DNA from: an uncultured Methanosarcinaceae archaeon
GTDB lineage: Archaea; Halobacteriota; Methanosarcinia; Methanosarcinales; Methanosarcinaceae
Reading direction: 5' to 3'
Length of the DNA: 64,000 nucleotides
Assembly (NCBI GenBank): GCA_963727895.1
Contig: CAVSHT010000011.1
Span: 96,001 to 160,000 of the forward strand
Shown: positions 48,980 through 64,000 of the stretch, piece by piece
Layout of the letters: the number at the start of each line of letters is the position of its first letter
How positions within the stretch are numbered: position 1 is the stretch's first letter
Program-made: the position numbers and the translations under genes
The notes under the pieces: model-generated
Databases searched by the model: none
The model's input: the letters and a program-made list of their open reading frames with translations, nothing else
Told to the model about the DNA's origin: nothing

Positions 48980-50697
48980 TCACATTTCTACTCTGGATTT
49001 AAAGAAATTTTCGGTATCCTTGTCCATAAAGTAAACGTAACAACCTTTCATTCCTCTTGATAATAAAACCCTATAAGTATTTTTTACTAAATCAGTAAAT
49101 TTATCTTTTGACTTTTTTACGACAGTATCTTCTGAATACTCGGGATGCCCTTCCCATCTTTGAGTCTCAAAATTATATACCAAATCTTTCCCAAATATAA
49201 CCCCAACATAATCAAACTCAAATCCTTGTATAGTGTATACACATCCAACTTGGTTCACACCGCGTGGATCATAAGCCCAAAGAGAAGCTTTTGGGATATC
49301 TTTTGCAAGCTTTTTGGCATCTTGTTTTGCATTCCAAGGTCTCTCAAAATTTCCTATGACCACATCATCCATTAATGTTCCATTTTTATTTGGTTGAGAC
49401 CAAGACCAGCAGAACCCAGCAGTCAATCTTCCAGTAAATCCTTCTTCAATTTTTCCAACTATTTCAGCTTCAAGTTCTTCCGGACTGCTCAGAATCCTGA
49501 AATCAAACTCTTCCTGCTGAGTCCATATAACATTAGCAGTTTTTTTTATTCCCAGTGTATTATTTATCCAATTTACGAATCCATCTGATCCACTACATCT
49601 GAATTGAGCTTCCAATTCGTACTCGAAAACCTGACAATTATTTTTAATTGCATATTCCTTTATAAACTCAACAGATCCTATTTCATCAGGTCTTACAACT
49701 TGATCATCGTCTATAAATAAAACCAAAACTTTTGCAACATTAATTAATTCTTCGATTTGTGGTATTTTTGACTTTCTCTCACGAGAAGTATACCGATTAT
49801 TGCTGGTTTTTCTTATTCTGTGTGCTTCATCAGCGATCAATACATCTATTGAATTCTCGTCTGCACCCATATAACTGTTGAAATACTTAAACTGAGCAGA
49901 ACCACGCATTCCAACTATTTTTCTTAAAGTTTCAGTAAACGCACGTGAGCCGGTAGCGTAATGTGCATTATAACCATCTAAGAGAAGATTAGCCATCAAG
50001 TTAATTGCAATAACAGACTTTCCAGTTCCTGGCCCACCCTTTACAATGATCACGTTCTTTTGATCATCAAAGAAACCGTTTTTGACACAAGAAAGCACTT
50101 TATCAAATACCACCAGCTGTTCATCAAGGAGGGTGTATTCTGGCTTTCCTTTAATCAACTTTCCAACGTGATCCATCAATTTCTTACTTGGCTTATATTT
50201 TCCATTCTCTATTTTCGTAAGGACTTCTAACCCTTTTCCGCTATCTAATTTATTTAGCAAGAACCTTTCAAGTCCACTCACATTATCAGCTGTGAATAAA
50301 GGATAATCTTTGATTACCTCTGAGAATTTATCAGAAAATATAACATCGTGAGAGTCATAACTGTAATTGTGCAGGAAAGTGCAAGAGTTCAGACAAACCG
50401 GATTATCGCCTTCATAGAAAGATGTATGGGTATCTTGTAAATACATTGTGTACTGAGCAACTTGTACAGATGGATGGAGTACTTCTCTTTCATTCCCCCC
50501 AACCCATGTAAGTACTTCATTATCTCCAGAGGCTTCCCTGCATTTGCTCCACTGCTTCAACTCAATAATTACTGCATTATCGACGTTATTTTTATCTCTA
50601 CCAGTTATTAAGCAATCCAATCTCTTAGAAGTAAGTGGTAACTGATACTCAAGAATTACTCCGTGATCTATAAGATTTGCTTCTTCAAACACACTAG
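48980..50697 (-). pseudogene. DUF2075 (Schlafen-group/SF1-like helicase with N-terminal nuclease-like domain), 5' end lost at MITEs
   Basis: IIELKQW, GGPGTGKS, IADEAH, QFRC, VGCVYTIQGFEFDY, YRVLLSRG. Confidence 0.85.
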
Positions 50698-50882
50698 TGT
50701 CTTGGCAATTTAATTGTTGAGCATAATATTGGTAGCTTCTAGTCAGCATATAACGATTTTGAGCTCATTAGATTACTAATAAATAAATTTTCATGACACT
50801 AGTGTCGAGTCAACAGTAAAATGTCGTATAAAATCGATTTTATTTATTCGTAATCGTTGAATTCTTGAGAATTGACGCGACA
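50698..50882. mobile_element. Two tandem MITEs (101 bp and 80 bp), each bounded by CTAG
   Basis: CTAG at 50694, 50799 and 50883; TIRs TGTCTTGGCAATTT/AAATTTTCATGACA and TGTCGAGTCAA/TTGACGCGACA. Confidence 0.75.
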
Positions 50883-51473: not shown

Positions 51474-52265
51474 TCATCTCTTTCTGGAGCTGTTAAGTTC
51501 AATCAATTCAGGTTCTTCACCCTGTTTTGTATACTCCATGGTATAATCATTCATCTTACATTCAATTATTATTGCCCCACTCATAGGAGTTGTTCCACCT
51601 GTAACGTCCCAAATAACTTCTTCTTTATTTAATTCATTAACTTTAAATTCGGTTGGATATCTTTCGCTAATTTCGTCACGTATTTTTATGAAATCTGTAG
51701 GGTCTTGTATAAAAATATCTATCGGATTAACAATCGGAACAAATTTCTTGATAAAATGTTTAACAATTTTCATCTCTTCTTTTGACTGATCAGTATATAG
51801 CAACCAACATACTTCAAGATGGTCACGATGATAATAGATAGCTCTAAATGTTTGACCTATTCCCCATACATTTTTGAAAAACTCATGTAATAATTTTTCA
51901 GGGTTTTCATGTGCTTTTATTTTATCGAGTAAAGAATCGATTTCTTGAATTAGATTTTCTTTTTTCGATGCTTTGCTAATGGAAACTATGAGACCTTTGT
52001 AAATTTTACTTGGTTTTGGAGCATTAAGTACTTCAATTTTATTTTTCTCCAAGAAACTAAAATGAAGGTTACCTATGATATGGATCAAAATAACAATTAC
52101 GAGAATAATTAATCCCCATTTAAAGATAATATTAAAATTAATATCTGATGTTAAGAAACTACAGAGTAAGCCTCCAAATACACCACCTACTAAAAAATCA
52201 CTGATAGTGTTGTAAATTGGATACATTCTGGATATCCTCTTATATCGATTGTGAATTCCTTTCAT
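51474..52265 (-). CDS. Two-TM plus CARF effector (Cam1/Cam2-like)
   Basis: Two N-terminal hydrophobic helices; KGLIVSIS, CWLLYT and WDVTGGTTPMS CARF motifs; last gene of the cas cluster. Confidence 0.75.
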   Translation of the reverse strand: MKGIHNRYKRISRMYPIYNTISDFLVGGVFGGLLCSFLTSDINFNIIFKWGLIILVIVILIHIIGNLHFSFLEKNKIEVLNAPKPSKIYKGLIVSISKASKKENLIQEIDSLLDKIKAHENPEKLLHEFFKNVWGIGQTFRAIYYHRDHLEVCWLLYTDQSKEEMKIVKHFIKKFVPIVNPIDIFIQDPTDFIKIRDEISERYPTEFKVNELNKEEVIWDVTGGTTPMSGAIIIECKMNDYTMEYTKQGEEPELIELNSSRKR

Positions 52266-52521: not shown

Positions 52522-54537
52522 TTAAGGTGGGCTGATATTAAATGGATCAGGTAACACTGGACGTTCTTTATATTCATTATCGGGATTGATCTGAAGATAC
52601 CTGGTTAAATCAGTGTTAGGTCCCATCCATTCCATCATCTTAAGAAGCATTTTTATCCTCTCAACTTCATATAGCTGGTCTTTTTTTTCACCAATTTTTT
52701 CTAATATGTGCTTTTCAAAACTATTAATTAACTTAGTTTTAGATTCATAAGGCAGCTTGTGCACAGCTTCATACCATGAATCACCTTCAAACAACTTGTG
52801 ATATCTCTCGTCCCTTTTAGATTCATAAAGTTCAGGTTTCATCTTAATTGCACCCATCCCAAAGGGTTTTCCCATTCCTAGCGAATGGCGATATTCTTTA
52901 CCTTCTTCCCCAGGAAGTGTCAAAACCCACAATAAAGCGCCCAATTCAAAATCTCTTAAGTTTTCAAAATAGATGCGGAATGAAAAAGTAACTCCTGATT
53001 TTATCGGTTTAATTCTCGTATACTGTGTAGGCGACTTTTCAATATTTCTCATATCTAGTTCTTTTATATCTTCTAATTTAACTTCGCCTTTATGCCAATA
53101 CATCTTATGCCCACGAATTACAGTATCATATGGTGAAGGAGTGGCATAGTGAGCTAAATTTACCTTTTGATCAGGATCATGGGATTTATGTAGATCCTGA
53201 ACTAGATAATGTTGAAATGTTGTAGGCTTGGGGGATGCAAGGATTTTCGGAATAATCGTTTTCTGCTTTTCGATTAGCCATATGTCTTCAAATGGAGACT
53301 CAAGTTTTGCATCAGTGAAGAATACACGTCCTGCGCATGAAGTTTTGTGACTATTTTTTGATTCATAGCCAAAAATAGCTTCAGAAATGTCAATTTCATC
53401 TTTCTCTCTCAATTTTTCAGGAACAAAGTGAATTACCGATTCATCATAAGGCAATCGAAACATCATTGTTGGGCCCAAAAAAACAAGTTCTTCCTTGTCA
53501 TCCACAAGATAAAACAATGGATCTCCATCTTCACAGAGAGGACGGCTTGAAATTCCACGAGAGATACCCCGGTCATCTGAATAAAGTGACCATATGTGAT
53601 TAGGGATCAAAATTGGTTTTTCCTTAGTATCTGGCTCATAAATGGCACAATGCATGTGCTTTTCTGTTCTCCCACCCATATGCCCACTACGTACAATAAC
53701 AGCCTTTTCAAACCCATCTTCTTTTCCTTCAGAAATTTGTCTTATATCTGATTTGTTTTGAACAACAGCAAGATTTAATGCCAAATCACGACTTGATCTT
53801 TGTGGAATCGTTCTTTCTTTTGGAGGACGAATATAAACCTCAATTATATCTTTTGCAGTATAATCTTCCTTTGGATAATGTTTATCACATTTAACCGCTT
53901 GTGCTGCATTGTATTCAATATGAACAAATGTTTCCCCATATATTTCACGAGCTGGCTGTATAGACCAATGTGATCCCTCTTTTTTTAAATACCCTCCACG
54001 AACATTTGATGAAGGATATTCAAAAAAATACTTTTGATTCATATTATTTTGCTGATTATTACCTAACAACTTGTTCCGATAAGATGCGCCCAAACTGCTT
54101 GAATCACCAACAGCACGATAAACAAGTTTTTTGTCTGTTACCCATTGTATTTTTCCATAACTTGCAATCTCCACCAAAGATCTAATCATTCCTCGTAGAG
54201 TGCTACCTGGAATTACTGGAATATCTACATTATCTCTATAAAAAAACTGGGCACATTTGTATTTCTGATCTGGATTCAGTTCATGAAATTTTTTATCCCC
54301 ATGTTCACTAAAAAAAGAAGGAGTCATTGAGCAACGGACGTACAATGTGGATTCGGTTTTCATGGTGCATTCTATATAGCCGGTGTTATTAGTGTAAGTG
54401 TCTTGGTCCGGTACTTTATCGATAACAGTTACCAATTTATCTGGCAAGGGTATAAAGTTGTAAGGAGCATATGCCCAAAAAGACTTATTTCTTCTGTCAA
54501 AGCGTTTCCTTGTAGGATTTGAATGCTTTGGTAACAT
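52522..54537 (-). CDS. Type III-D large Cas7 with insertion (TIGR03986-like)
   Basis: APYNFIPL, IPGSTLRGMIRS, AGRVFF, RGHKMYWH, LGMGKPFGMG. Confidence 0.9.
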   Translation of the reverse strand: MLPKHSNPTRKRFDRRNKSFWAYAPYNFIPLPDKLVTVIDKVPDQDTYTNNTGYIECTMKTESTLYVRCSMTPSFFSEHGDKKFHELNPDQKYKCAQFFYRDNVDIPVIPGSTLRGMIRSLVEIASYGKIQWVTDKKLVYRAVGDSSSLGASYRNKLLGNNQQNNMNQKYFFEYPSSNVRGGYLKKEGSHWSIQPAREIYGETFVHIEYNAAQAVKCDKHYPKEDYTAKDIIEVYIRPPKERTIPQRSSRDLALNLAVVQNKSDIRQISEGKEDGFEKAVIVRSGHMGGRTEKHMHCAIYEPDTKEKPILIPNHIWSLYSDDRGISRGISSRPLCEDGDPLFYLVDDKEELVFLGPTMMFRLPYDESVIHFVPEKLREKDEIDISEAIFGYESKNSHKTSCAGRVFFTDAKLESPFEDIWLIEKQKTIIPKILASPKPTTFQHYLVQDLHKSHDPDQKVNLAHYATPSPYDTVIRGHKMYWHKGEVKLEDIKELDMRNIEKSPTQYTRIKPIKSGVTFSFRIYFENLRDFELGALLWVLTLPGEEGKEYRHSLGMGKPFGMGAIKMKPELYESKRDERYHKLFEGDSWYEAVHKLPYESKTKLINSFEKHILEKIGEKKDQLYEVERIKMLLKMMEWMGPNTDLTRYLQINPDNEYKERPVLPDPFNISPP

Positions 54538-55103
54538 TAAACCACCCCTTTTATAATATCCGCTCTAATAAATACCAGTCGACTGAATTTTATATATGCC
54601 TGGCCATCTTTGTCATAATCTAGATAGTGTCGTACCTTAAGTTTCAAGTCCCTGTTTGAATCAACCGGTGGAGCATGTCGTAATCCTTCAGATCCATGTT
54701 CCCACAGAAAAAAACCATTATTGCTATTTTCCTGTCTGGTACCCCATAAAAGCATAGTTTCATCAAAATATTCTATATCTTGTCCTTGATTATCAATCAC
54801 CAAGCGGGCTTGCCAGCTACAAGAATCAGTTCTCCAAATGAATAACTCACCATTAGTACCAAATAACCTTGCCATCTGAAGAGTTTTTGATCTCAATGAA
54901 GGTCCAAATAAGTTAGACGACAGGTGAATCCTATCATCTCTCAATTCACCCCATATTACTCCATCGTCAGCATGAACTAATAACCACTTGAGATCATAAG
55001 CTTTAGCCTGTTCCTCAAACCATACTGCTATATTGCCTCCAAAATCGGCTGGAACACTTAGCGGGAGGATTTTATACTTCAGATTCAGGACCTTTGGTTT
55101 CAT
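54537..55103 (-). CDS. csx19: Csx19 (type III-D)
   Basis: HADDGVIWG, ARLFG..GELFIWR, LWGT, VRHYL..SRL. Confidence 0.85.
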   Translation of the reverse strand: MKPKVLNLKYKILPLSVPADFGGNIAVWFEEQAKAYDLKWLLVHADDGVIWGELRDDRIHLSSNLFGPSLRSKTLQMARLFGTNGELFIWRTDSCSWQARLVIDNQGQDIEYFDETMLLWGTRQENSNNGFFLWEHGSEGLRHAPPVDSNRDLKLKVRHYLDYDKDGQAYIKFSRLVFIRADIIKGVV

Positions 55104-56527
55104 GCTACAATACCTCCAATAAAATCACTTACATAATTTTCAAGCCTATCCCTGTCACCTACAATTTCTATCTTTCCGTTATTTTTTTTATTGATTTCCC
55201 ATACATGTTGTGTGTCAAAACTTTCTTTATATGTTATTTTTGCATTTAGTCCACGCAAACGTCCTCTTCCCACACTTGCTTCACCACCTAATGGTAAATC
55301 ACCGGTCCATAAATCTTTCAGCAGGAGTAGTAAGAGTCCTATTTGGGCACTTTCTGGTTTTTGGATCTGTACTTTAAATTTAACGTTTGTTCCCTTCTGC
55401 TCAAAAATTGGTTGTTCATTAAAAAGTGCTGTAGGGAGAGAGCTACCAGTGAAACGGTCAATCTTGATACGTTGTTGCACAAGGTTCAAGGGATTTGTGA
55501 TTTCGTTTTCAGTTGTTATTAGCTGACTTGCAGAAGCTTTATCTGAAGGAGATTTGATTTCTGGACCAAATAATCTGTTTATCATTTCGCTGGCTTTTTC
55601 TTCGCTCCCAATAGTTTTTGCAATACGAAATGCTCTTGCTCTTAATGAACCCGCCAAGCTGGTACCACTTAAAACAGGAATTGACTCTCCGTTTCGGTTT
55701 GAATGAAGATGAACCATATCTGGAGCATCGGCTTTATCATACCCTGACCTAATGATCATGGAACCATCAAGAGAAAAAGTGGCATTCATTGTGAAAAGGT
55801 GTCTTTTATCAATTAGGTTACTTTCATTAATGCCTAATAAAGTAAAAATGTTCTGACCACGCTTTTCCTCCTTCAGATCCTCATCCAGCCAATTAATTAG
55901 CCCTTTAGGAGTTGTTAAGTTGTAGCGGCAGACATTCCATTCTTTTATCTTACAGCTACCAAATCCTCTCCTCTTACGAAAACCTAAAGATATTTCTCCT
56001 TTTTCCAATCCTTTTAAAGCAATAGCCAGACCAAGAAGTAGTTTTTCTTTTCTTGTATCTTCTTTCGGGGTCAATAATTCCATTTCGATGGAGAAACAAG
56101 TACCTGCTTCAATCAGTTCAAAATCAAATTTGTGTTTATCTTCTGCTGTTCGAGTCTTGTTATCGATTTTTACTCCGTCTCTCAATTCTACCTTTGGTTT
56201 TTCACCCAATGAATCGTTAACAATAAGCAGACTTTGTTCACCTTCATCGTCTTCCTGGTTACCAAATAGATTCATATATAGTGATTTTTTGTCACCTTGT
56301 TGTCCGTAACCGTGTTCATATTCCCTCAAATAACTTCGCAAAGCACCAGCTAAAGACGCGCCAGTCAAAAGAGTCTTACCTTCTAATGGATCTAATGCTA
56401 ATGGGATATCCACCAGCTCATCGTGGTCACCTGCGCCAAAATATGTTGGTGTTTCCAAAACAAGGCTTCCAAGGATAGTGATTCTCTCTACAATCTCTCG
56501 ACTTTTCAACCAATGAGAATTATCCAT
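55100..56527 (-). CDS. Cas7-Cas7 fusion RAMP (Csm3 group)
   Basis: Two RAMP units (GASLAGALRS/RDGVKID and GTSLAGSLRA/IDRFTG), each with a G-rich loop. Confidence 0.88.
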   Translation of the reverse strand: MDNSHWLKSREIVERITILGSLVLETPTYFGAGDHDELVDIPLALDPLEGKTLLTGASLAGALRSYLREYEHGYGQQGDKKSLYMNLFGNQEDDEGEQSLLIVNDSLGEKPKVELRDGVKIDNKTRTAEDKHKFDFELIEAGTCFSIEMELLTPKEDTRKEKLLLGLAIALKGLEKGEISLGFRKRRGFGSCKIKEWNVCRYNLTTPKGLINWLDEDLKEEKRGQNIFTLLGINESNLIDKRHLFTMNATFSLDGSMIIRSGYDKADAPDMVHLHSNRNGESIPVLSGTSLAGSLRARAFRIAKTIGSEEKASEMINRLFGPEIKSPSDKASASQLITTENEITNPLNLVQQRIKIDRFTGSSLPTALFNEQPIFEQKGTNVKFKVQIQKPESAQIGLLLLLLKDLWTGDLPLGGEASVGRGRLRGLNAKITYKESFDTQHVWEINKKNNGKIEIVGDRDRLENYVSDFIGGIVA

Positions 56528-58082
56528 TGTTTACCTCCTTGGATGCTTTGTGAAGAACTGCATCAATCAGACGAGCAGTGTATTCACGAGCCAGATTATC
56601 ATTTAAATCTGATTTTATATTTCCTAACGAGGGTAAGTTATTTTTATTAACTTGAAGTATATCCCAAACACTTTGTGGATTTGCTGCAAATTCCTTAATC
56701 CACTGTTCCAGTGATTTTCCTTCAATCTGGGCATTTTGAAACTGATCACTTGCAGTTTTTTTCATTTTATCCAGGTGACTTGTAACTATGGACAAATCAT
56801 CCTCACTCAAAGATCGACGAACTATCACGCGCATGCGGGACAGCTGAGATTTCTTTGGAATGGATTCTTTTGTTATTTCCAATTTGTTAACTGCCTTGAT
56901 TAAATCTCGATCCAGCTTTTCTTTAGTCATCCTGCTAACAATTCTTTTAGCCAAGCACAAGCTATCCGGATCTTTTATTTCGTAAGGTAAAGTAGATTCT
57001 TTAAACTCCCACTTTTCTGCTTTAATTCCATTTACTTGGTGCCAGTTGACAGCAATTCGTCCATAACCTTCTTCTCTTTTTTCTCCAATCCCAGTGATCT
57101 TGAGTGTTTCTAACCGATCAAGCAATTCTGAACTTTTTTCGTAAACAAATACGCTGCCTGCTCGAATAGCTAAAACCTGAGGAAGGGGAAGATTCCAGGT
57201 ATTATTGAAGCCTCCTCTTATCCGCGTGCTTACAAAGGCTTTTTTAAGAGACTTTGACTCCACACCTAAAACGGAATTGATGTTTGTGCTGTAAGCGCCA
57301 GTATTCTTGTCGCAGATAAGAGTATCACTTAAAAGAGTAACTACTATTGTGTTGTCTTCTTCATCGCCAACAGTAAAATATTCTTCCCAATTATCACAAA
57401 TGTTTATGTTATTGATCTTTACATGTCCGTAGCCTGCAAGATGTGATTTCCCTAAATTAAAGATCGCTCCGTCTGTTAATAAATCTTTAATCTTTTTAAA
57501 GCATAATTCATTCTCAGCTAATATAACACCGGAGAAATCTTGACCTGCTTCCAATGCTTGATAACGAAAAATTGTACTTTCTCCAGCAGTCTCTCTTTGT
57601 CTATTCGCACGAAAGATATGTATTTGGACTTGATTAGAAGGTTGATATAAAATGATTCCTTCTCCCTCATCGTTTTCAAACAAATAACAAAAAGGTTCAG
57701 AAACTTTTTTCCAATTTCTTTCAGGGTCATTCTCTCCGTTGTCTGAAAAATCCCCTGTCGCAAAGTCATATATTATGTTATCAGGATCACCTTTTTCTAC
57801 ATGCCATGAAAGAGGAGTAGGTAAAGACCGGCTATAATCTTTATTTGAAGGATATGCATTTAAGAAGCGTACAGCTCCATCAAAAAAAAGCTCTCTAAAT
57901 TCAGCGTCTTCCGCATCGATTGAGCTCTTCGGTTTTCCTTGGAGATACTTGCCTATCAATGCCCCTCTAATTACACTGCTAGGAATAAATTCAAATCCAA
58001 TCGCACTGTTTGGATCCCCTCCACTTATATCGTTTACCAATAAGGGTTCTAATAAATGTATATTGAAAGTCAATGCTTTCAT
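56520..58082 (-). CDS. csx10: Csx10-like Cas5 RAMP, probably fused to the small subunit (Cas11)
   Basis: IPSSVIRGAL, PTPLSW, LGKSHLAGYG, AGSVF, GIGEKREEGYG; helical C-terminal KSQLSR domain. Confidence 0.8.
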   Translation of the reverse strand: MKALTFNIHLLEPLLVNDISGGDPNSAIGFEFIPSSVIRGALIGKYLQGKPKSSIDAEDAEFRELFFDGAVRFLNAYPSNKDYSRSLPTPLSWHVEKGDPDNIIYDFATGDFSDNGENDPERNWKKVSEPFCYLFENDEGEGIILYQPSNQVQIHIFRANRQRETAGESTIFRYQALEAGQDFSGVILAENELCFKKIKDLLTDGAIFNLGKSHLAGYGHVKINNINICDNWEEYFTVGDEEDNTIVVTLLSDTLICDKNTGAYSTNINSVLGVESKSLKKAFVSTRIRGGFNNTWNLPLPQVLAIRAGSVFVYEKSSELLDRLETLKITGIGEKREEGYGRIAVNWHQVNGIKAEKWEFKESTLPYEIKDPDSLCLAKRIVSRMTKEKLDRDLIKAVNKLEITKESIPKKSQLSRMRVIVRRSLSEDDLSIVTSHLDKMKKTASDQFQNAQIEGKSLEQWIKEFAANPQSVWDILQVNKNNLPSLGNIKSDLNDNLAREYTARLIDAVLHKASKEVNNG

Positions 58083-58768
58083 GGCATCACCTTTTCACAA
58101 AATACAGTAAAATAATTTTCAGTAACGTTTATTCCGTTTTCATCACAAAGAACAGCAACAAGTTTACCCCTCCCACGATTACGACCCGTACCAGCTCTCC
58201 TGAAAGCTTTTATGCAAGCTGCTAACAAAGGTAGATCCAAACCAGATGGATCTTTTGTAAACGATAATTTCGCCTCAAATGATGTTTCCCTAAGCACTAC
58301 CCTCATTGAACGTAGAGATCTTTTTTTAGGTGCTCCTGATTTTTCGTCAATCGAAGTTTGACGACGAATAGAAGTCAGAGAATTCAGTATATCTTCACTA
58401 CTTAATCTCATTGAGCTGCGAGATTTTTCAAGCTCGTATGCGACAGTTTTTCTCAAATCCGCTGGCAAAGTGGCATTACTTATGTGAAGTATAGCTTTAT
58501 CTGAATCACTGCTTCCGGGATTTCCAAAAAGGTGTTGGGAAGATTCATAGAATTCTTCTTGGAATTTCACGTCATGATTTTGTTCATTTAAGGAAAAAAG
58601 GATGTTTGCACACTCTTCTTCAAGCAAGCCTTTCAGAGTTCTCCCGTTCAAAAAAGGTAATCCACATTTGTCATGCATTACTTCTACATCGACCAGACCC
58701 GCTAAACCGTCTCCCCTACCAAAAGTTGAGTCACTTTTTATAGTAAATTTTAACCAGAATGTTTTCAT
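58079..58768 (-). CDS. Cas7-group RAMP (Csm3-like)
   Basis: GLPFLNGRTLKGLL, LFG.PG, RQTSID, GTGRNRGRG. Confidence 0.85.
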   Translation of the reverse strand: MKTFWLKFTIKSDSTFGRGDGLAGLVDVEVMHDKCGLPFLNGRTLKGLLEEECANILFSLNEQNHDVKFQEEFYESSQHLFGNPGSSDSDKAILHISNATLPADLRKTVAYELEKSRSSMRLSSEDILNSLTSIRRQTSIDEKSGAPKKRSLRSMRVVLRETSFEAKLSFTKDPSGLDLPLLAACIKAFRRAGTGRNRGRGKLVAVLCDENGINVTENYFTVFCEKVMP

Positions 58769-60454
58769 TTTCTGCCCCCTTCAAGCTGAACAAAAAAATC
58801 GAGAGCTTCAATTGCATCAAAGCAAGTACAAGTATTATCAACCCAGCCTGTTTTGTCAGATTCTTCGTTGTTTTTTATTTTAGGGAGTGGCTGTTCTTTT
58901 GGAAGCGAGTCATTATATATTTTTATGAATTTTTCAACTTCATGGGGTCCATTACGTAAAACCTCTCTAAGGCGCATGATTTTGTTATGTTTACCCTCCC
59001 ATTCTTCACCCTTGAATTTTGAAATAATTTCTTCAAAAGTGTTCCAGGAGCACCAGTCTGTTCCTACGGATTCTCCAAGGCGTAATGGACGCATGTTTAA
59101 ATTGCCACATATTTCTGATGAGCCTTCTTTCCATTTGATTGTATATTCACGCTTTCTAATGTTCTCAATACTTTCAATTACTCCACTAGAAGCAAAGTGC
59201 CAATCTATGGCAGAAATTTTTCCTTCTTCAGAAGGAGATGCTTTTTCAATTCCTTTTATACGTGATTTCGCGGATTCTGCCAAGTTGTTTGCCAGTTTTA
59301 AAGCTTGGTAAAATGGATAATGAGTTTTTACAATAGCTATTCCAGCTCTAGCAGAGATCGGATGTCCATCGCTCAACTTCTTGTCCTTGGATGTCAATTG
59401 GCGTAACAGTAATTCAGAAAGAGTTAATCCCAATCGTCCGTCGCAAACAAAAGTTATATCATCGCCACCGAAGACAATTGGTCGGAAAGGTAATTTATTT
59501 TGGAATTCTACTAACCCCCCCAATTTTGCATATTCCTTCTTCGTCTTTTTGAGATTCAAGCAACCTAACTATGGCATTTCTGATTGCCTTACTACTTGCT
59601 TCTTCAATTGAATCCGAAAGAGCACGAATAGAATTTATGTATTCACGGTTGTCTTTCCAATGTCTTTTTGAATATTCTGAAATTCTTTTTCCCATTCCAT
59701 TTCCATCGATATGAACAACAGCAATGTAACTAGACTCATTTTTGGAACCGATTTCATTGAAATCATATACAAAATCTATACCACGATCTTTTTCATCCTT
59801 ATTTAGAAATTTGTTGCAAAGTCTGTCATTAGATGAACGGAAAAAATCCAATTTTGTAGATATCTCTCTCGAAACCCTAATTTCTGTTCCATCATCTTTT
59901 CTAGTCTCATCTTTTCTAGTCTCGGAAGCTGGAAGACCCGTATACTGACAAGAAGCATTCACCCCAATTCCAAGAAGAGGGGATGAGTGAATATAGTTGT
60001 ATTTTTTTTGTGTTATTTTTTTATGGAGAGTTTCCCTTACTGTTTTTTCAAGGGTATCTAGGTTATCTTTATCCCATATGAAGTTGTTATGAGCGATAAT
60101 TAACTGTAAGCCTGGTGCTTTTAAAAGAACTTTTTTAGTATATTCTCGTGTAAATTTTTTGGCAAGATCCTGGTTCTTGAATAAAATTACATTGTTTCCT
60201 CCCCCAGAATAAACAAGCTCGGAATCCAAATCATCTTTCTCAATCTTTTTATTGTTTAATGTTCTAGAGTTTAAATCCAGATTAGTTTTTTCTATATTAG
60301 TCGTTCCAATTTTTTTCAATTCCTCATAGACCATTTCATGGGTTACAAAATTAACCAGTCCAGAGGCCCCAACGTTCTGTTTCAGGTTGTTGCTTCCAAA
60401 AATATAATCTTGGATCCCAACAGTATCTATGACTGTGACTGTGAATTCTGTCAT
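58765..60454 (-). CDS. cas10: Cas10 lacking the HD domain, split by a +1 frameshift in a G7 tract
   Basis: IDTVGIQDYIF, YSGGGN, HIDGNGMG, FGGDD cyclase motif, HYPF; C7 run at 59515-59521. Confidence 0.9.
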
Positions 60455-60470
60455 AAAAAACCTTCTTATA

Positions 60471-61676
60471 TCAAGATGTCAACCATTCCTTCAGATAAAT
60501 GGAAAGATTTTGGATCTGTTCCGCACCAAATACTCTAAACTTGTTTTCTAAATGCCACTCTTCCTTAATTTCTTTTTTAATTATTTCAGGGCTAGCGTCA
60601 GAACTTCTGTCTGATGCAAAACATACTACTCCTATTTTTGCTTCATCCCCACCTAACTGCTGACCGCGGACATAAGCTTCAAATAACTTTTGCTTTACAA
60701 TACTTTTTTTACTTGCAGTTGTACAAGAAACTACGAATAATTCATATCCTCTTAAAATAGCCACATCTAACTCAAATTTGTTATAGTTGAATTTTGCTCC
60801 TAAAACATGATCATGGATTTTACATTCCTCAGCTACCTCTTGAAACATTAATAGTGTATAGTCTTCCAACCAATTACCATCAAACCAACTAGCCAAATTC
60901 TCAACTTTTATTCCCCATTTTTTTGCTAGATCCTCTAAGGTGCTGCAATCTTCCCAAAAATTAGCCAAATTTTCAAATGGCGGATCAATAGGCAAAATTA
61001 CATTTTTCAGTTCAGGTTTGTTCAATATTTTACCCAAGTTTTCGGACCTTAATTTTTTGTCACACCATTTCCGAAATTCTGTAAACAGATCATTTGCCAA
61101 AACTTCACAAATTTCGGGTATAAATACTTCTCTTTTATTATCTATTTCGTATCCATGCAAAGAAAAAAGTTCTTCAATTGATGGTTTGACAGATAAGCTT
61201 ACAGGAATTCTTTTTGATGATGAATCCCTCGTATCTATTACTAATTCCAGGCTACGAGCATCGAGATAACTAAAAACAGAATCTTGATCTGCATCTAGAA
61301 CGGCCTTATATGCATTTACTGCCATAGCCTTTGTTCCACCAGTATAGTTTAGCCCAAGTTTTTGTTTCCCTTTTGAGTATTCAGTTATTTTTTTGTATAT
61401 ATCTCTGGAGTCTGATTCATTCACAAGAATTTTAGTCCACCTTTCTGAAGGAATATTAAGTACTGTGATAAGATCATTTGCGATTTTGTTTGTTTTAGAA
61501 GTATGGATAAAGATAATATGGGAAGATGGCTTTGCGAGTAAGTGATAAACAACATAATTTGGTAAAGGATTTGTACCGATCAGCAGAAACAGGTAGTCAC
61601 TTCTATACTCAGCAAATTTGTCAGACTCATTTTTTGTTGCAATTTTTTCACCCAAAGTTTGAATCCTCCTTTTCAA
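60471..61676 (-). CDS. Card1/Can2-like CARF plus PD-(D/E)xK nuclease
   Basis: LIGTNPLPN, NYTGGTKAM, GNWLEDY, ELDV...SCTT, LGG. Confidence 0.85.
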   Translation of the reverse strand: MKRRIQTLGEKIATKNESDKFAEYRSDYLFLLIGTNPLPNYVVYHLLAKPSSHIIFIHTSKTNKIANDLITVLNIPSERWTKILVNESDSRDIYKKITEYSKGKQKLGLNYTGGTKAMAVNAYKAVLDADQDSVFSYLDARSLELVIDTRDSSSKRIPVSLSVKPSIEELFSLHGYEIDNKREVFIPEICEVLANDLFTEFRKWCDKKLRSENLGKILNKPELKNVILPIDPPFENLANFWEDCSTLEDLAKKWGIKVENLASWFDGNWLEDYTLLMFQEVAEECKIHDHVLGAKFNYNKFELDVAILRGYELFVVSCTTASKKSIVKQKLFEAYVRGQQLGGDEAKIGVVCFASDRSSDASPEIIKKEIKEEWHLENKFRVFGAEQIQNLSIYLKEWLTS

Positions 61677-61686
61677 AGCTATGTAT

Positions 61687-62370
61687 TTAAATAATCAGAA
61701 TCGTATTTTCTTCACAGTTCCAAACCCCTTCGCAACCCCTTTCCCCATCTCCCATAAAATCCGGAATCAAAAAATTGGCTATAAAACCGCCTGTAAAAGA
61801 AGTAAAATCCATTTGTTTGTACTTTGAACATCTGAGTTCCACATCAACATCGCATTTTATGGTATCAGGAACAGTATATCCAAAAGCTTTTGACATGGAA
61901 AGCAGGTTTCCTATGAGCGTTTTCCTGAGGATTTCCTTTTTTTCTTCAGGGTTTCTGGTCTCAAAGAATTTCTCTTCGTTTTCTTTATTAAGGGCAAGCC
62001 AGGGAGTGAGAAATTCGTAAAAGTAGAGGTTTTTTGTAAGGCCAAAATCATGTTTTTTAAGCCTCAGAGACCTTTCAGTGATTTCAAAGTCCTCATAAGG
62101 AAGAGTAACCGTATCAAATTTATCAAATATATCTTTTAATATTTCTGCTCCTTCATTTATACCAACCACTAAAGGTATCCTATCAAGAACTTTGTATTGC
62201 ACCAGAGGGTACCGGTAATAAAACCTGTCAGTATTATGATTGTGGAGCTGGTCGTATTCATTGAATTTTGACGCAAAGAACCCACGGATCTGATTTGCAT
62301 CCCCTCTGAACTCTTCTGAGCCTTCAAAAGTCATTTCAAGAGTTTTGAGTTTAATATTTTCAGGAATCAT
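61687..62370 (-). CDS. cas6: Cas6 (Cas6b type); +1 frameshift just before the Gly-rich loop
   Basis: LHNH..YRYPLVQYK, FLTPWLALN, LIGNLLSMSK; the shifted frame gives GKGVAKGFGTV. Confidence 0.88.
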   Translation of the reverse strand: MIPENIKLKTLEMTFEGSEEFRGDANQIRGFFASKFNEYDQLHNHNTDRFYYRYPLVQYKVLDRIPLVVGINEGAEILKDIFDKFDTVTLPYEDFEITERSLRLKKHDFGLTKNLYFYEFLTPWLALNKENEEKFFETRNPEEKKEILRKTLIGNLLSMSKAFGYTVPDTIKCDVDVELRCSKYKQMDFTSFTGGFIANFLIPDFMGDGERGCEGVWNCEENTILII

Positions 62371-62491: not shown

Positions 62492-63682
62492 TTAAATGAA
62501 CGCTTTGATCTTTTTATTAAAACTTTGCTCAATTATTTCAAGCCCAGCCGCACAATCCGTATGTTTGTAATAGTTTACCCACGGGTCAACAACTTGGTAG
62601 ATATTTTTAATTACACTATTAATAGACTTAATTTTATTTATATCGTCGTTTCTTACTTTTTCTGTGCGTCTTATACTCTCTATGCTCTTTATTACATTTT
62701 CAATAGACCCTTCAGTGGGTACAACTTTTATGCCATTCCCTGTCCCGTTGTTCTGTTCAATTTCCTGAAAATAGAAGCCTACGAACTCAAAACCATTTGT
62801 GACAGTCCCAACATAGGTCTTTTCTTTGTTTAATTTGAGCCCCAGTACAGCCAGTACAGCCCTAACTCTGTTAGGATTGATCCATTCTTTTGAAAGGATC
62901 ACAAAATCATCTGAAAAACGCACAAGATGCTCAACTGAGTCCCCTTCAACATTCTTCAACCCTATTTCAGTCCACTGATTGTCAAACTGGTCAAGATAGA
63001 AGTTTAAAAGAAGAGGCGAGATAATTCCGCCCTGAAGCAATCCTTTTCCTGAATCTTTTCCGGAACTGTTTCCAACTGAACCTTTTTTAAGCCAGGACTT
63101 GATCAGAGAAAGTATCAATTTATCTTCGATTCTTATTTTAAGAGCCTTCATGAGCTTATCATGAGGAATGCTATCAAAACAGTCCTCAATATCCCCTTTC
63201 AAATAATGGATGCTCCCGGTTTCAAGCCATTTGTAAACTTCAAGGCTGGCGAGTTTTGCAGACCTGTAAGCACGGTAGCCATAGGAACAGTTTTCAAAAT
63301 CAGCTTCAAAAATCGGCTCAAGAATAAGTTTTACAGCTCCTTGGACAAGCCGGTCTTTTAAGGTAAGAATTCCGAGCTGCCTTGTTTCCCCATTCTTTTT
63401 TGGGACTTTGACTCTTTTTACTTCGCCAGCCTCGTACTTTTCACTTTTAAGCTCCTTCTTTACTGAGCGAATGAAGTTTTCAACCCCTGAAGTCTCTACC
63501 TGCTGGATAGTCAGAAAATCAAAACCAGTTCCTTTTGTATTTCGGTTCAGCTTCTTCCAGGCAGTGTAAAGGACTTCGTCTTTCAAAAGCAGCTTTTTAA
63601 GATTTTTAAACCGTTTTTTAGGATTGCTCTTAGCGTTATTGTACAGTTTCAGTTGAATTTTGGCTATTTTTTGCTTCTGGAT
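62492..63682 (-). CDS. Stand-alone group II intron-like reverse transcriptase in the cas locus
   Basis: PKKNGETRQLGI..DRLVQ, SYGYR, GDIEDCFD, QGGIISPLL, RFSDD, FEFVGF, WVNYY. Frame open to 63682, where GGAGGT precedes ATC rather than ATG. Confidence 0.9.
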   Translation of the reverse strand: MQKQKIAKIQLKLYNNAKSNPKKRFKNLKKLLLKDEVLYTAWKKLNRNTKGTGFDFLTIQQVETSGVENFIRSVKKELKSEKYEAGEVKRVKVPKKNGETRQLGILTLKDRLVQGAVKLILEPIFEADFENCSYGYRAYRSAKLASLEVYKWLETGSIHYLKGDIEDCFDSIPHDKLMKALKIRIEDKLILSLIKSWLKKGSVGNSSGKDSGKGLLQGGIISPLLLNFYLDQFDNQWTEIGLKNVEGDSVEHLVRFSDDFVILSKEWINPNRVRAVLAVLGLKLNKEKTYVGTVTNGFEFVGFYFQEIEQNNGTGNGIKVVPTEGSIENVIKSIESIRRTEKVRNDDINKIKSINSVIKNIYQVVDPWVNYYKHTDCAAGLEIIEQSFNKKIKAFI

Positions 63683-63845
63683 TTCAGATACCTCCGTAAA
63701 TGATTCTTAATTTTCAATCATCTACGGAACCTGATATATTTAGCCACGAAGAATTCGGATTTTTTCCGAATTAAAGGTCTTGACAATTGTTTTCTTGGAA
63801 CTGTTTCTCAATAAAAATGGAAGTATTAGATAAACAAAAAGAGGA

Positions 63846-64000
63846 ATTTCAATCCTTGTTTTAGTGGAAACTACTTCTTGACAACAAAATCAGACGGGAG
63901 CTTGATTTTGCCGGGGGAGCAAGTTTCAATCTTTGTTTTAGTGGAAACTACTTCTTGACCCGCTAACGACCCCATGATAATATTCGATCTCGCAGTTTCA
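63846..64000 (-). CRISPR. CRISPR array end: 37-bp repeats at 63846-63882, 63923-63959 and 63995 onward; spacers of 40 and 35 bp
   Basis: Repeat GTTTCAATCCTTGTTTTAGTGGAAACTACTTCTTGAC; minus strand ends ATTGAAAC; variant bases in these repeats suggest the trailer end. Confidence 0.93.

Follow-up and report, generated by a model that had tools for sequence, protein, structure and literature searches.

A CRISPR-associated, group II intron-like reverse transcriptase in a Methanosarcinaceae archaeon appears orphaned from its array leader and partner cas1-cas2 genes

An uncultured Methanosarcinaceae archaeon carries a stand-alone reverse transcriptase (RT) gene between a CRISPR array and a run of cas6 and type III-D genes. 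This RT can be assigned securely to the CRISPR-associated lineage of the Methanosarcinaceae that was described as RT-CRISPR clade 1 or branch 11: it is a new member of that lineage and not a new kind of RT. The best overall explanation, to which we give a probability of about 0.6, is that the RT derives from a group II intron, that its lineage acts as the partner of a separately encoded Cas1-Cas2, and that it has been orphaned in this genome. The window that we analysed is a stretch of 64,000 nucleotides (C11:96001-160000, where C11 is the contig holding it). The genome itself is called G000 below; other G labels denote genomes of relatives, L labels denote loci or contig pieces, and L009 is the G000 locus. 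Since the G000 assembly (3.67 Mb, 19 contigs) is 84% complete, the absence of a gene from it is not proof that the gene is absent.

The RT lies on the minus strand, in a frame that is open from stop to stop over 404 codons (62492-63706, from the ORF listing). With the ATC start proposed below (63682-63680), the coding sequence spans 62492-63682 (396 codons); the first ATG, GTG or TTG in the frame is a TTG at 63586, which would yield 364 residues (62492-63586). An earlier note on this DNA had estimated about 397 codons, which fits the ATC start. The same note had described a stand-alone RT with an FSDD motif, on the minus strand between the array and a cas6/type III-D run, and the coordinates, the Pfam and NCBIfam matches and the motif, which reads LVRFSDDFVIL, all agree with it. 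Pfam RVT_1 matched residues 101-312 (E=3.7e-29), whereas the match to the maturase domain GIIM was weak; the NCBIfam model group_II_RT_mat (TIGR04416) matched residues 44-402 with 293.4 bits (E=2.3e-87; cut-off 300). RT motifs 0-7 and the thumb/X region are present, and D172, D266 and D267 are unchanged in 20 of 20 aligned sequences (the RT and 19 homologues), as are most RT motif residues. As also claimed earlier, the gene is separate and fused to neither Cas1 nor Cas6: stops close its frame at both ends, and cas6b is a distinct ORF 121 nt downstream. The gene thus encodes an intact, stand-alone protein with all RT motifs and the catalytic aspartates.

The earlier note had pointed out FSDD in place of YADD. 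The motif is indeed there, but it is not peculiar to this gene: F replaces Y in all seven RTs of the Methanosarcina subclade, followed by either S or A, so that the F is a lineage trait and the S/A alternation a polymorphism. Across the 20-sequence alignment, FSDD occurs in 5 sequences, FADD in 10 and YADD in the 5 more distant ones; the 15 genome-derived RTs comprise two with FSDD (G000 and G116), six with FADD, six with YADD and one with YGDD. The RT evolves under purifying selection, the pairwise dN/dS values among six orthologues being 0.12-0.20.

The best family and PDB matches of the RT are group II intron RT/maturases (7uim, E=3.9e-36; LtrA, 5g2x; GsI-IIC, 6ar1), as would be expected of the protein of a mobile group II intron inserted beside the array. 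The absent ribozyme refutes this reading, which we consider extremely improbable. In L009 1-3000, around the RT, an Rfam search at E<=1 returned CRISPR-DR7 only and neither D1-D4 nor D5-D6 intron RNA, and in 15 of 15 related archaeal loci (RT ±1.5 kb, E<=0.1) no intron RNA was detected, all 118 matches being CRISPR repeats. Rfam recovered D1-D4 and/or D5-D6 RNA on the RT strand in 18 of 19 control intron loci (19 of 72 non-Methanosarcinaceae RT loci, picked for short length), the one missed being L038, a 1.5-kb contig. An intron domain V/VI around the ORF, which the earlier note had named as a refuting finding, was thus looked for and not detected, with a working positive control, and the note's remark that there is no room for a flanking intron RNA also holds: only 163 nt are free between the last repeat and the ATC of the RT, and 121 nt between the RT stop and cas6b. 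Moreover, Pfam matched no endonuclease (D/En) domain in the RT, and the gene sits in the same place, beside an array and type III genes, in all six Methanosarcina-subclade loci, with cas6b next to it in five. The RT therefore shares with the mobile intron proteins motifs 0-7, the thumb/X region and a TIGR04416 match of 293 bits, but it scores just below the 300-bit cut-off, lacks both ribozyme and D/En domain, is shorter (396-404 aa, compared with 430-690 aa in the control loci) and has F for the Y of YADD. The G2L4 RTs (9d5x, 9d4s) are likewise domesticated RTs without an intron; they match only distantly, however (E about 5e-6), and have no CRISPR link.

Homologues with 72-83% identity to the RT are named in their source records as proteins of Methanosarcina siciliae, M. 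vacuolata, M. horonobensis and others. At E<=1e-60 the RT was found in 23 of 177 Methanosarcinaceae genomes (G000 counted). Within the genus, 16 of the 58 other genomes had it, seven of them as fragments only (L106, L108-L113), three of these with internal stop codons, so the gene has been lost repeatedly within the genus. An RT phylogeny had been suggested as a check. In a quick IQ-TREE search with midpoint rooting only (39 rows, leaving out the eight fragmentary or cut matches L098, L106 and L108-L113), a branch with SH-aLRT 100 split 15 Methanosarcinaceae RTs, the window RT among them, from 24 intron RTs, one row of the tree that was labelled 'bact' (L036) coming from a Bathyarchaeia MAG. 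Within its group, the window RT is sister to those of G111 and G166.

Silas et al. (2017, mBio) describe a 'branch 11', mostly from Methanosarcina, in which the RT adjoins cas6 with no cas1 in the locus; they regard these RTs, which fall among those of group II introns, as recruited independently. In Toro, Martinez-Abarca and Gonzalez-Delgado (2017, Sci Rep), RT-CRISPR-1 is confined to the Methanosarcinaceae, with the RT separate from Cas1, two Cmr- and three Csm-linked records, and a position near class F introns; Toro et al. (2018, Front Microbiol) have it as a recent archaeal lineage 4. A role of this RT lineage in RNA spacer acquisition is still called hypothetical in a 2020 review, and we found no experimental study of the Methanosarcinaceae CRISPR-RT lineage in the literature. 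We identify the window RT with this clade on the basis of taxon, architecture and the published descriptions: a Methanosarcinaceae host, a stand-alone RT near the group II intron RTs, no intron RNA, no Cas1 fusion, and a position adjoining an array, cas6 and type III genes. With the RT-Cas1 and Cas6-RT-Cas1 fusions (Marinomonas mediterranea; Thiomicrospira, 7kft), the RT has in common a group-II-like RT domain and the type III link; unlike them, it is unfused, and it matches 7kft (E=1.9e-27) less well than the intron protein 7uim (E=3.9e-36). In the literature, RNA spacer acquisition has been demonstrated for these fusions alone among the CRISPR-linked RT classes, and the Methanosarcinaceae RT is treated as a recruitment independent of them.

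We compared twelve loci with a full-length RT (G000, G111, G166, G116, G119, G122, G010, G173, G001, G095, G137 and G106). The effector beside the RT varies: it is of type III-D in G000, G111 and G116, of type III-C with csx11 in G166 and G119, and of type III-B (cmr1-6) in G122. In 7 of the 12 loci the RT has a cas1-cas2 pair at a distance of 0.8-3 kb, and in 6 a csa3-like gene is present: in G116, G119, G122, G010, G173 and G001 the cas1-cas2 pair is divergent and followed by the csa3-like gene, and in G095 it is upstream of the RT on the same strand, together with cas4. In G137 and G106, no cas1-cas2 was found among the ORFs scanned, which covered the flanks partly. Since cas1-cas2 stands next to the RT or the RT-linked array in 7 of the 12, the family as a whole shows a known module of RT plus adaptation genes, and G000 is a case in which the partner genes are missing. 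In G111 and G166, which are 99% complete, the RT is intact and both the leader and the palindrome described below are still there; their only full-length cas1 is more than 400 kb away (whole-genome Pfam search) and a search for a csa3-like gene found none, which means that the RT has been kept there with no dedicated module. In G001, a DDE transposase (DUF4277 and DDE_Tnp_1; L127 10974-12602) is located between the RT and the cas1-cas2-csa3 module.

About 160 nt upstream of the RT are conserved across six genomes and contain, in this order, a palindrome AATTCGG-N7-CCGAATT, TTCTTCGCG, a TATA-like box, a TAA (in five of the six), GGAGG and an ATH codon. In the window, alignment and genome search define a promoter-like module at 63733-63772 on the minus strand, composed of the palindrome (63752-63772), TTCTTCG and the TATA-like TAAATATATC (63733-63742). 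The N7 palindrome occurs once in the 3.67 Mb of G000, once in G111 and once in G166, each time at the RT. G116 and G119 have two copies each, one at the RT and one ahead of cas1, and the same pair was found in G122, of which the loci only were searched. In the five genomes searched throughout, it is restricted to RT/cas1 promoter sites. The cas1 copies of G116, G119 and G122 continue into the same TTCTTCGCG and TATA-like box as the RT promoter (second module copies upstream of cas1 at L119 2071, L121 2441 and L123 2919, respectively). With the palindrome (ATTCGG-N7-CCGAAT), TTCTTCGCG and a TATA-like box at both promoters, the comparison speaks for co-regulation of the RT with the dedicated cas1 operon. 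This putative shared promoter module is the best evidence found here for a role of the RT in adaptation, a role that is likely for the lineage. In the RNA-seq data of a relative (~91%; one run, 25.3 million letters), one 11.4-kb contig with a depth of 131.5 extends from cas10 through the RT to the array edge; uniform genomic DNA in a run of this size would reach at most about 6x by arithmetic. The contig is a hint of transcription, RNA-seq contigs showing neither its strand nor its level.

The RT could instead act independently of Cas1, in concert with cas6b and the type III effector. It might, for instance, copy crRNA or target RNA into cDNA in interference or signalling, and the neighbourhood of cas1-cas2 would on this reading be secondary. 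This is an unlikely explanation in our judgement. It would account for the intact RTs of G000, G111 and G166, which are retained under purifying selection with no dedicated cas1-cas2 nearby, and for the position of cas6b directly after the RT in 7 of 12 loci, across III-B, III-C and III-D sets; the absence of cas1 from the locus was also remarked by Silas et al. (2017). However, cas1-cas2 adjoins the RT or its array in just as many loci, the RT and cas1 have a common promoter/operator module in three genomes, and cas6b is not adjacent to the RT in G116, G173, G001, G106 and G095. Moreover, we know of no type III mechanism that requires an RT.

The 5' end of the RT gene is unusual. The first canonical start differs from genome to genome (364-404 aa), and the window RT has none until residue 41 of the protein as conserved. 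The stretch of 32 codons that precedes the TTG shows a dN/dS of about 0.15, which indicates that it is translated. A Shine-Dalgarno-like GGAGG (63691-63695, minus strand) stands 8 nt upstream of the in-frame ATC, and this arrangement, GGAGG followed after 8 nt by an in-frame ATC, ATT or ATA (ATH), is kept in six of six orthologous loci. AUH is the sole start candidate common to all six orthologues, and a non-AUG start is therefore probable, judging from the alignment. Further upstream, a mini-frame ATG ATT GAA AAT TAA (63707-63721, minus strand) ends in a TAA that is in frame with the RT; since this TAA is conserved in five of six orthologues, it belongs to the 5' region and is not a recent nonsense mutation. 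Two other candidates were rejected: an ATG at 'MEV' was found in G119 only and is not a conserved start, and a hairpin ATGATT..AATCAT ahead of the gene is not conserved in G116 and G119. The cas1 frame of G116, G119 and G122 also has no conserved canonical start; it opens with an ATT, itself conserved, behind a motif resembling GGAGG.

On the other side of this 5' region lies the RT-proximal (trailer) end of the array (63846-64000, repeat GTCAAGAAGTAGTTTCCACTAAAACAAGGATTGAAAC read on the minus strand). The 37-nt repeats occupy 63846-63882 and 63923-63959, a third starts at 63995, and Rfam recognizes them as CRISPR-DR7 on the minus strand. The RT-linked array has 10 repeats and runs past the window end into 122 repeats of the I-B type, forming one cluster of 132. 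As assembled, it joins the trailer end of the I-B array through an ordinary 39-nt spacer with no leader between them, the I-B leader being at the far end of the fused array, next to cas4. In five relatives, a conserved leader of ~260 nt precedes the RT-linked array and 3-6 kb separate the two arrays; this leader had no blastn match in G000. The two repeat types are identical over their last (3') 22 nt, including ATTGAAAC, and thus have the same 8-nt crRNA tag. The 131 spacers gave only partial matches of 17-21 nt to their own genome (blastn-short), and the 10-repeat array had no match among 50,697 phage records (distant mode). Within the 122-repeat I-B array, four spacers are present two to three times (L009 3699-3958 and elsewhere), and one block consists of 3.5 perfect 74-nt units, the spacer repeats there being internal duplications.

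The earlier note had reported no cas1 or cas2 in view. A whole-genome Pfam search found neither within the 64-kb window and none immediately beyond the RT-linked array, where the note had proposed to look, but both genes exist farther on, past the window end at C11:160000: one cas1 (C11:170861-171685) and one cas2 (C11:170518-170670), ~11 kb from the RT and part of a type I-B locus. This locus, on the minus strand at L009 11637-19988 (C11:169636-177987), comprises cas8b, cas7, cas5, cas3, cas6b, cas1, cas2 and cas4. Its cas1 has 68% identity to an I-B cas1 and 38% to the RT-linked cas1 of G116; as assembled, cas1 is frameshifted near codon 15-19 and cas2 near codon 50, and cas7, cas8b and cas5 appear as fragments. 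By its coverage with long ORFs, the I-B locus could not be told apart from the remainder of G000 in a genome-wide comparison. The assembly yielded neither a csa3-like gene nor a cas1 or cas2 of the RT type, and an adaptation module of the RT-Cas1 type, with an RT fused or adjacent to Cas1 and accompanied by Cas2, is not present. The G000 RT appears orphaned from its array leader and partner genes. G000 thereby differs from the published clade in having neither an array leader nor a dedicated cas1-cas2-csa3 set, and in the fusion of its RT-linked array to the I-B array.

The type III-D genes follow the RT on the minus strand. Directly downstream, cas6b (61687-62370, 227 aa, Pfam) is 46% identical to the I-B cas6b of G000. 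Next come a Card1-like effector with CARF and nuclease domains (60471-61676, 401 aa, Pfam), whose G111 orthologue has the same length, and a cas10 in two frames (58765-60454), split at a run of seven G (59515-59521). The break is a +1 frameshift near codon 310, with the GGDD motif after it, and the G111 orthologue is a single ORF of 557 aa. RNA-run contigs of two relatives have one letter fewer at this G run (at 59514). Among the sequencing runs searched for source-like reads, none matched more than 0.26 of the sampled words; over the break (bins 59170-59559) the cover in the two best DNA runs was 0 (X1) and 0.43 and 1.22 (X2), with no indel listed. The frameshifts in cas10, cas1 and cas2 may be assembly errors, two of them lying at or near homopolymer runs. 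The remaining effector genes (52522-58768, Pfam/NCBIfam) encode a RAMP protein (58079-58768), Csx10 (56520-58082), a Csx7-like double RAMP protein (55100-56527), Csx19 (54537-55103) and a TIGR03986 RAMP protein (52522-54537). The signature genes of type III-D are thus present, namely csx10, csx19 and multi-RAMP Cas7 proteins, with a GGDD cas10 that is split as assembled.

With its leader and cas1-cas2-csa3 module missing, cas10, cas1 and cas2 frameshifted and other I-B genes fragmentary, the locus could be disabled and its RT a decaying, functionless leftover; the lack of a canonical start codon at the conserved RT N-terminus and the RT fragments in seven other genomes of the genus, three with internal stops, would fit. 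We find this even less probable than a function independent of Cas1. The RT frame is open over 404 codons, and the codon changes specific to the G000 branch are 23 synonymous and 10 non-synonymous. The start region, with its Shine-Dalgarno motif, ATH codon and upstream TAA, is the same in five relatives with intact loci, and the RT promoter module is intact. In addition, DNA contigs from two other sequencing runs, 97-99% identical over the RT, carry no indels there, and the frameshifts elsewhere are those that may stem from assembly.

We thus favour an RT whose lineage works in adaptation. In such a mechanism, the lineage RT would convert RNA to DNA for a partner Cas1-Cas2 that is encoded separately and in most cases accompanied by a Csa3-like protein. 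The Cas1-Cas2 module would belong on the far side of the RT-linked array, in Methanosarcina with a copy of the palindrome and promoter module of the RT, and the RT and Cas1-Cas2 would together load RNA-derived spacers into the type III array. With the module and leader missing and only the frameshifted I-B cas1 and cas2 at hand, the G000 RT would be either idle or reliant on the I-B Cas1-Cas2 acting at the I-B leader. Counting against this explanation are the RTs of G111 and G166, which have no dedicated module, the want of a canonical start before residue 41, and the possibility that the frameshifts are assembly errors. A more specific and quite tentative proposal, which we think improbable as a whole, is a single regulon made up of the RT and the dedicated cas1 in Methanosarcina, in which the duplicated palindrome-plus-TATA module and AUH starts behind a strong Shine-Dalgarno motif would keep the adaptation proteins scarce; after loss of the module (G000, G111, G166), the RT would remain under selection either by working in trans with the I-B Cas1-Cas2 and feeding a shared array, or through a second role, with Cas6b and type III, that does not need Cas1.

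Among CRISPR-linked RTs, those of archaeal type III loci are the one lineage known to have an origin separate from the bacterial RT-Cas1 fusions. If they do capture RNA spacers with a separate Cas1-Cas2, they would represent a second, modular route to RNA recording and a way to look for archaeal RNA viruses. The earlier note had left two options, a domesticated RT working with Cas1-Cas2 encoded elsewhere and a non-adaptation role; both are live and match the literature on this lineage, but the arrangement itself was already published, and the window adds little to the existence of the lineage. New here are the cas1-cas2(-csa3) link in 7 of 12 loci, the copy of the RT promoter at cas1, the loss of module and leader in G000, and the array fusion. 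The comparison also offers handles for experiments: the putative operator shared by RT and cas1, the conserved leader, the probable non-AUG start, and naturally occurring genomes that have kept the RT but not its partner module.

Two further ORFs were seen on the minus strand past the type III-D genes. At the end of the run, a 263-aa ORF (51474-52265) had no Pfam or NCBIfam match. Just beyond, a 589-aa ORF (48980-50749) matched the Schlafen group 3 DNA/RNA helicase domain (E=3.1e-89) and, weakly, nSTAND3, and may be another defence gene.
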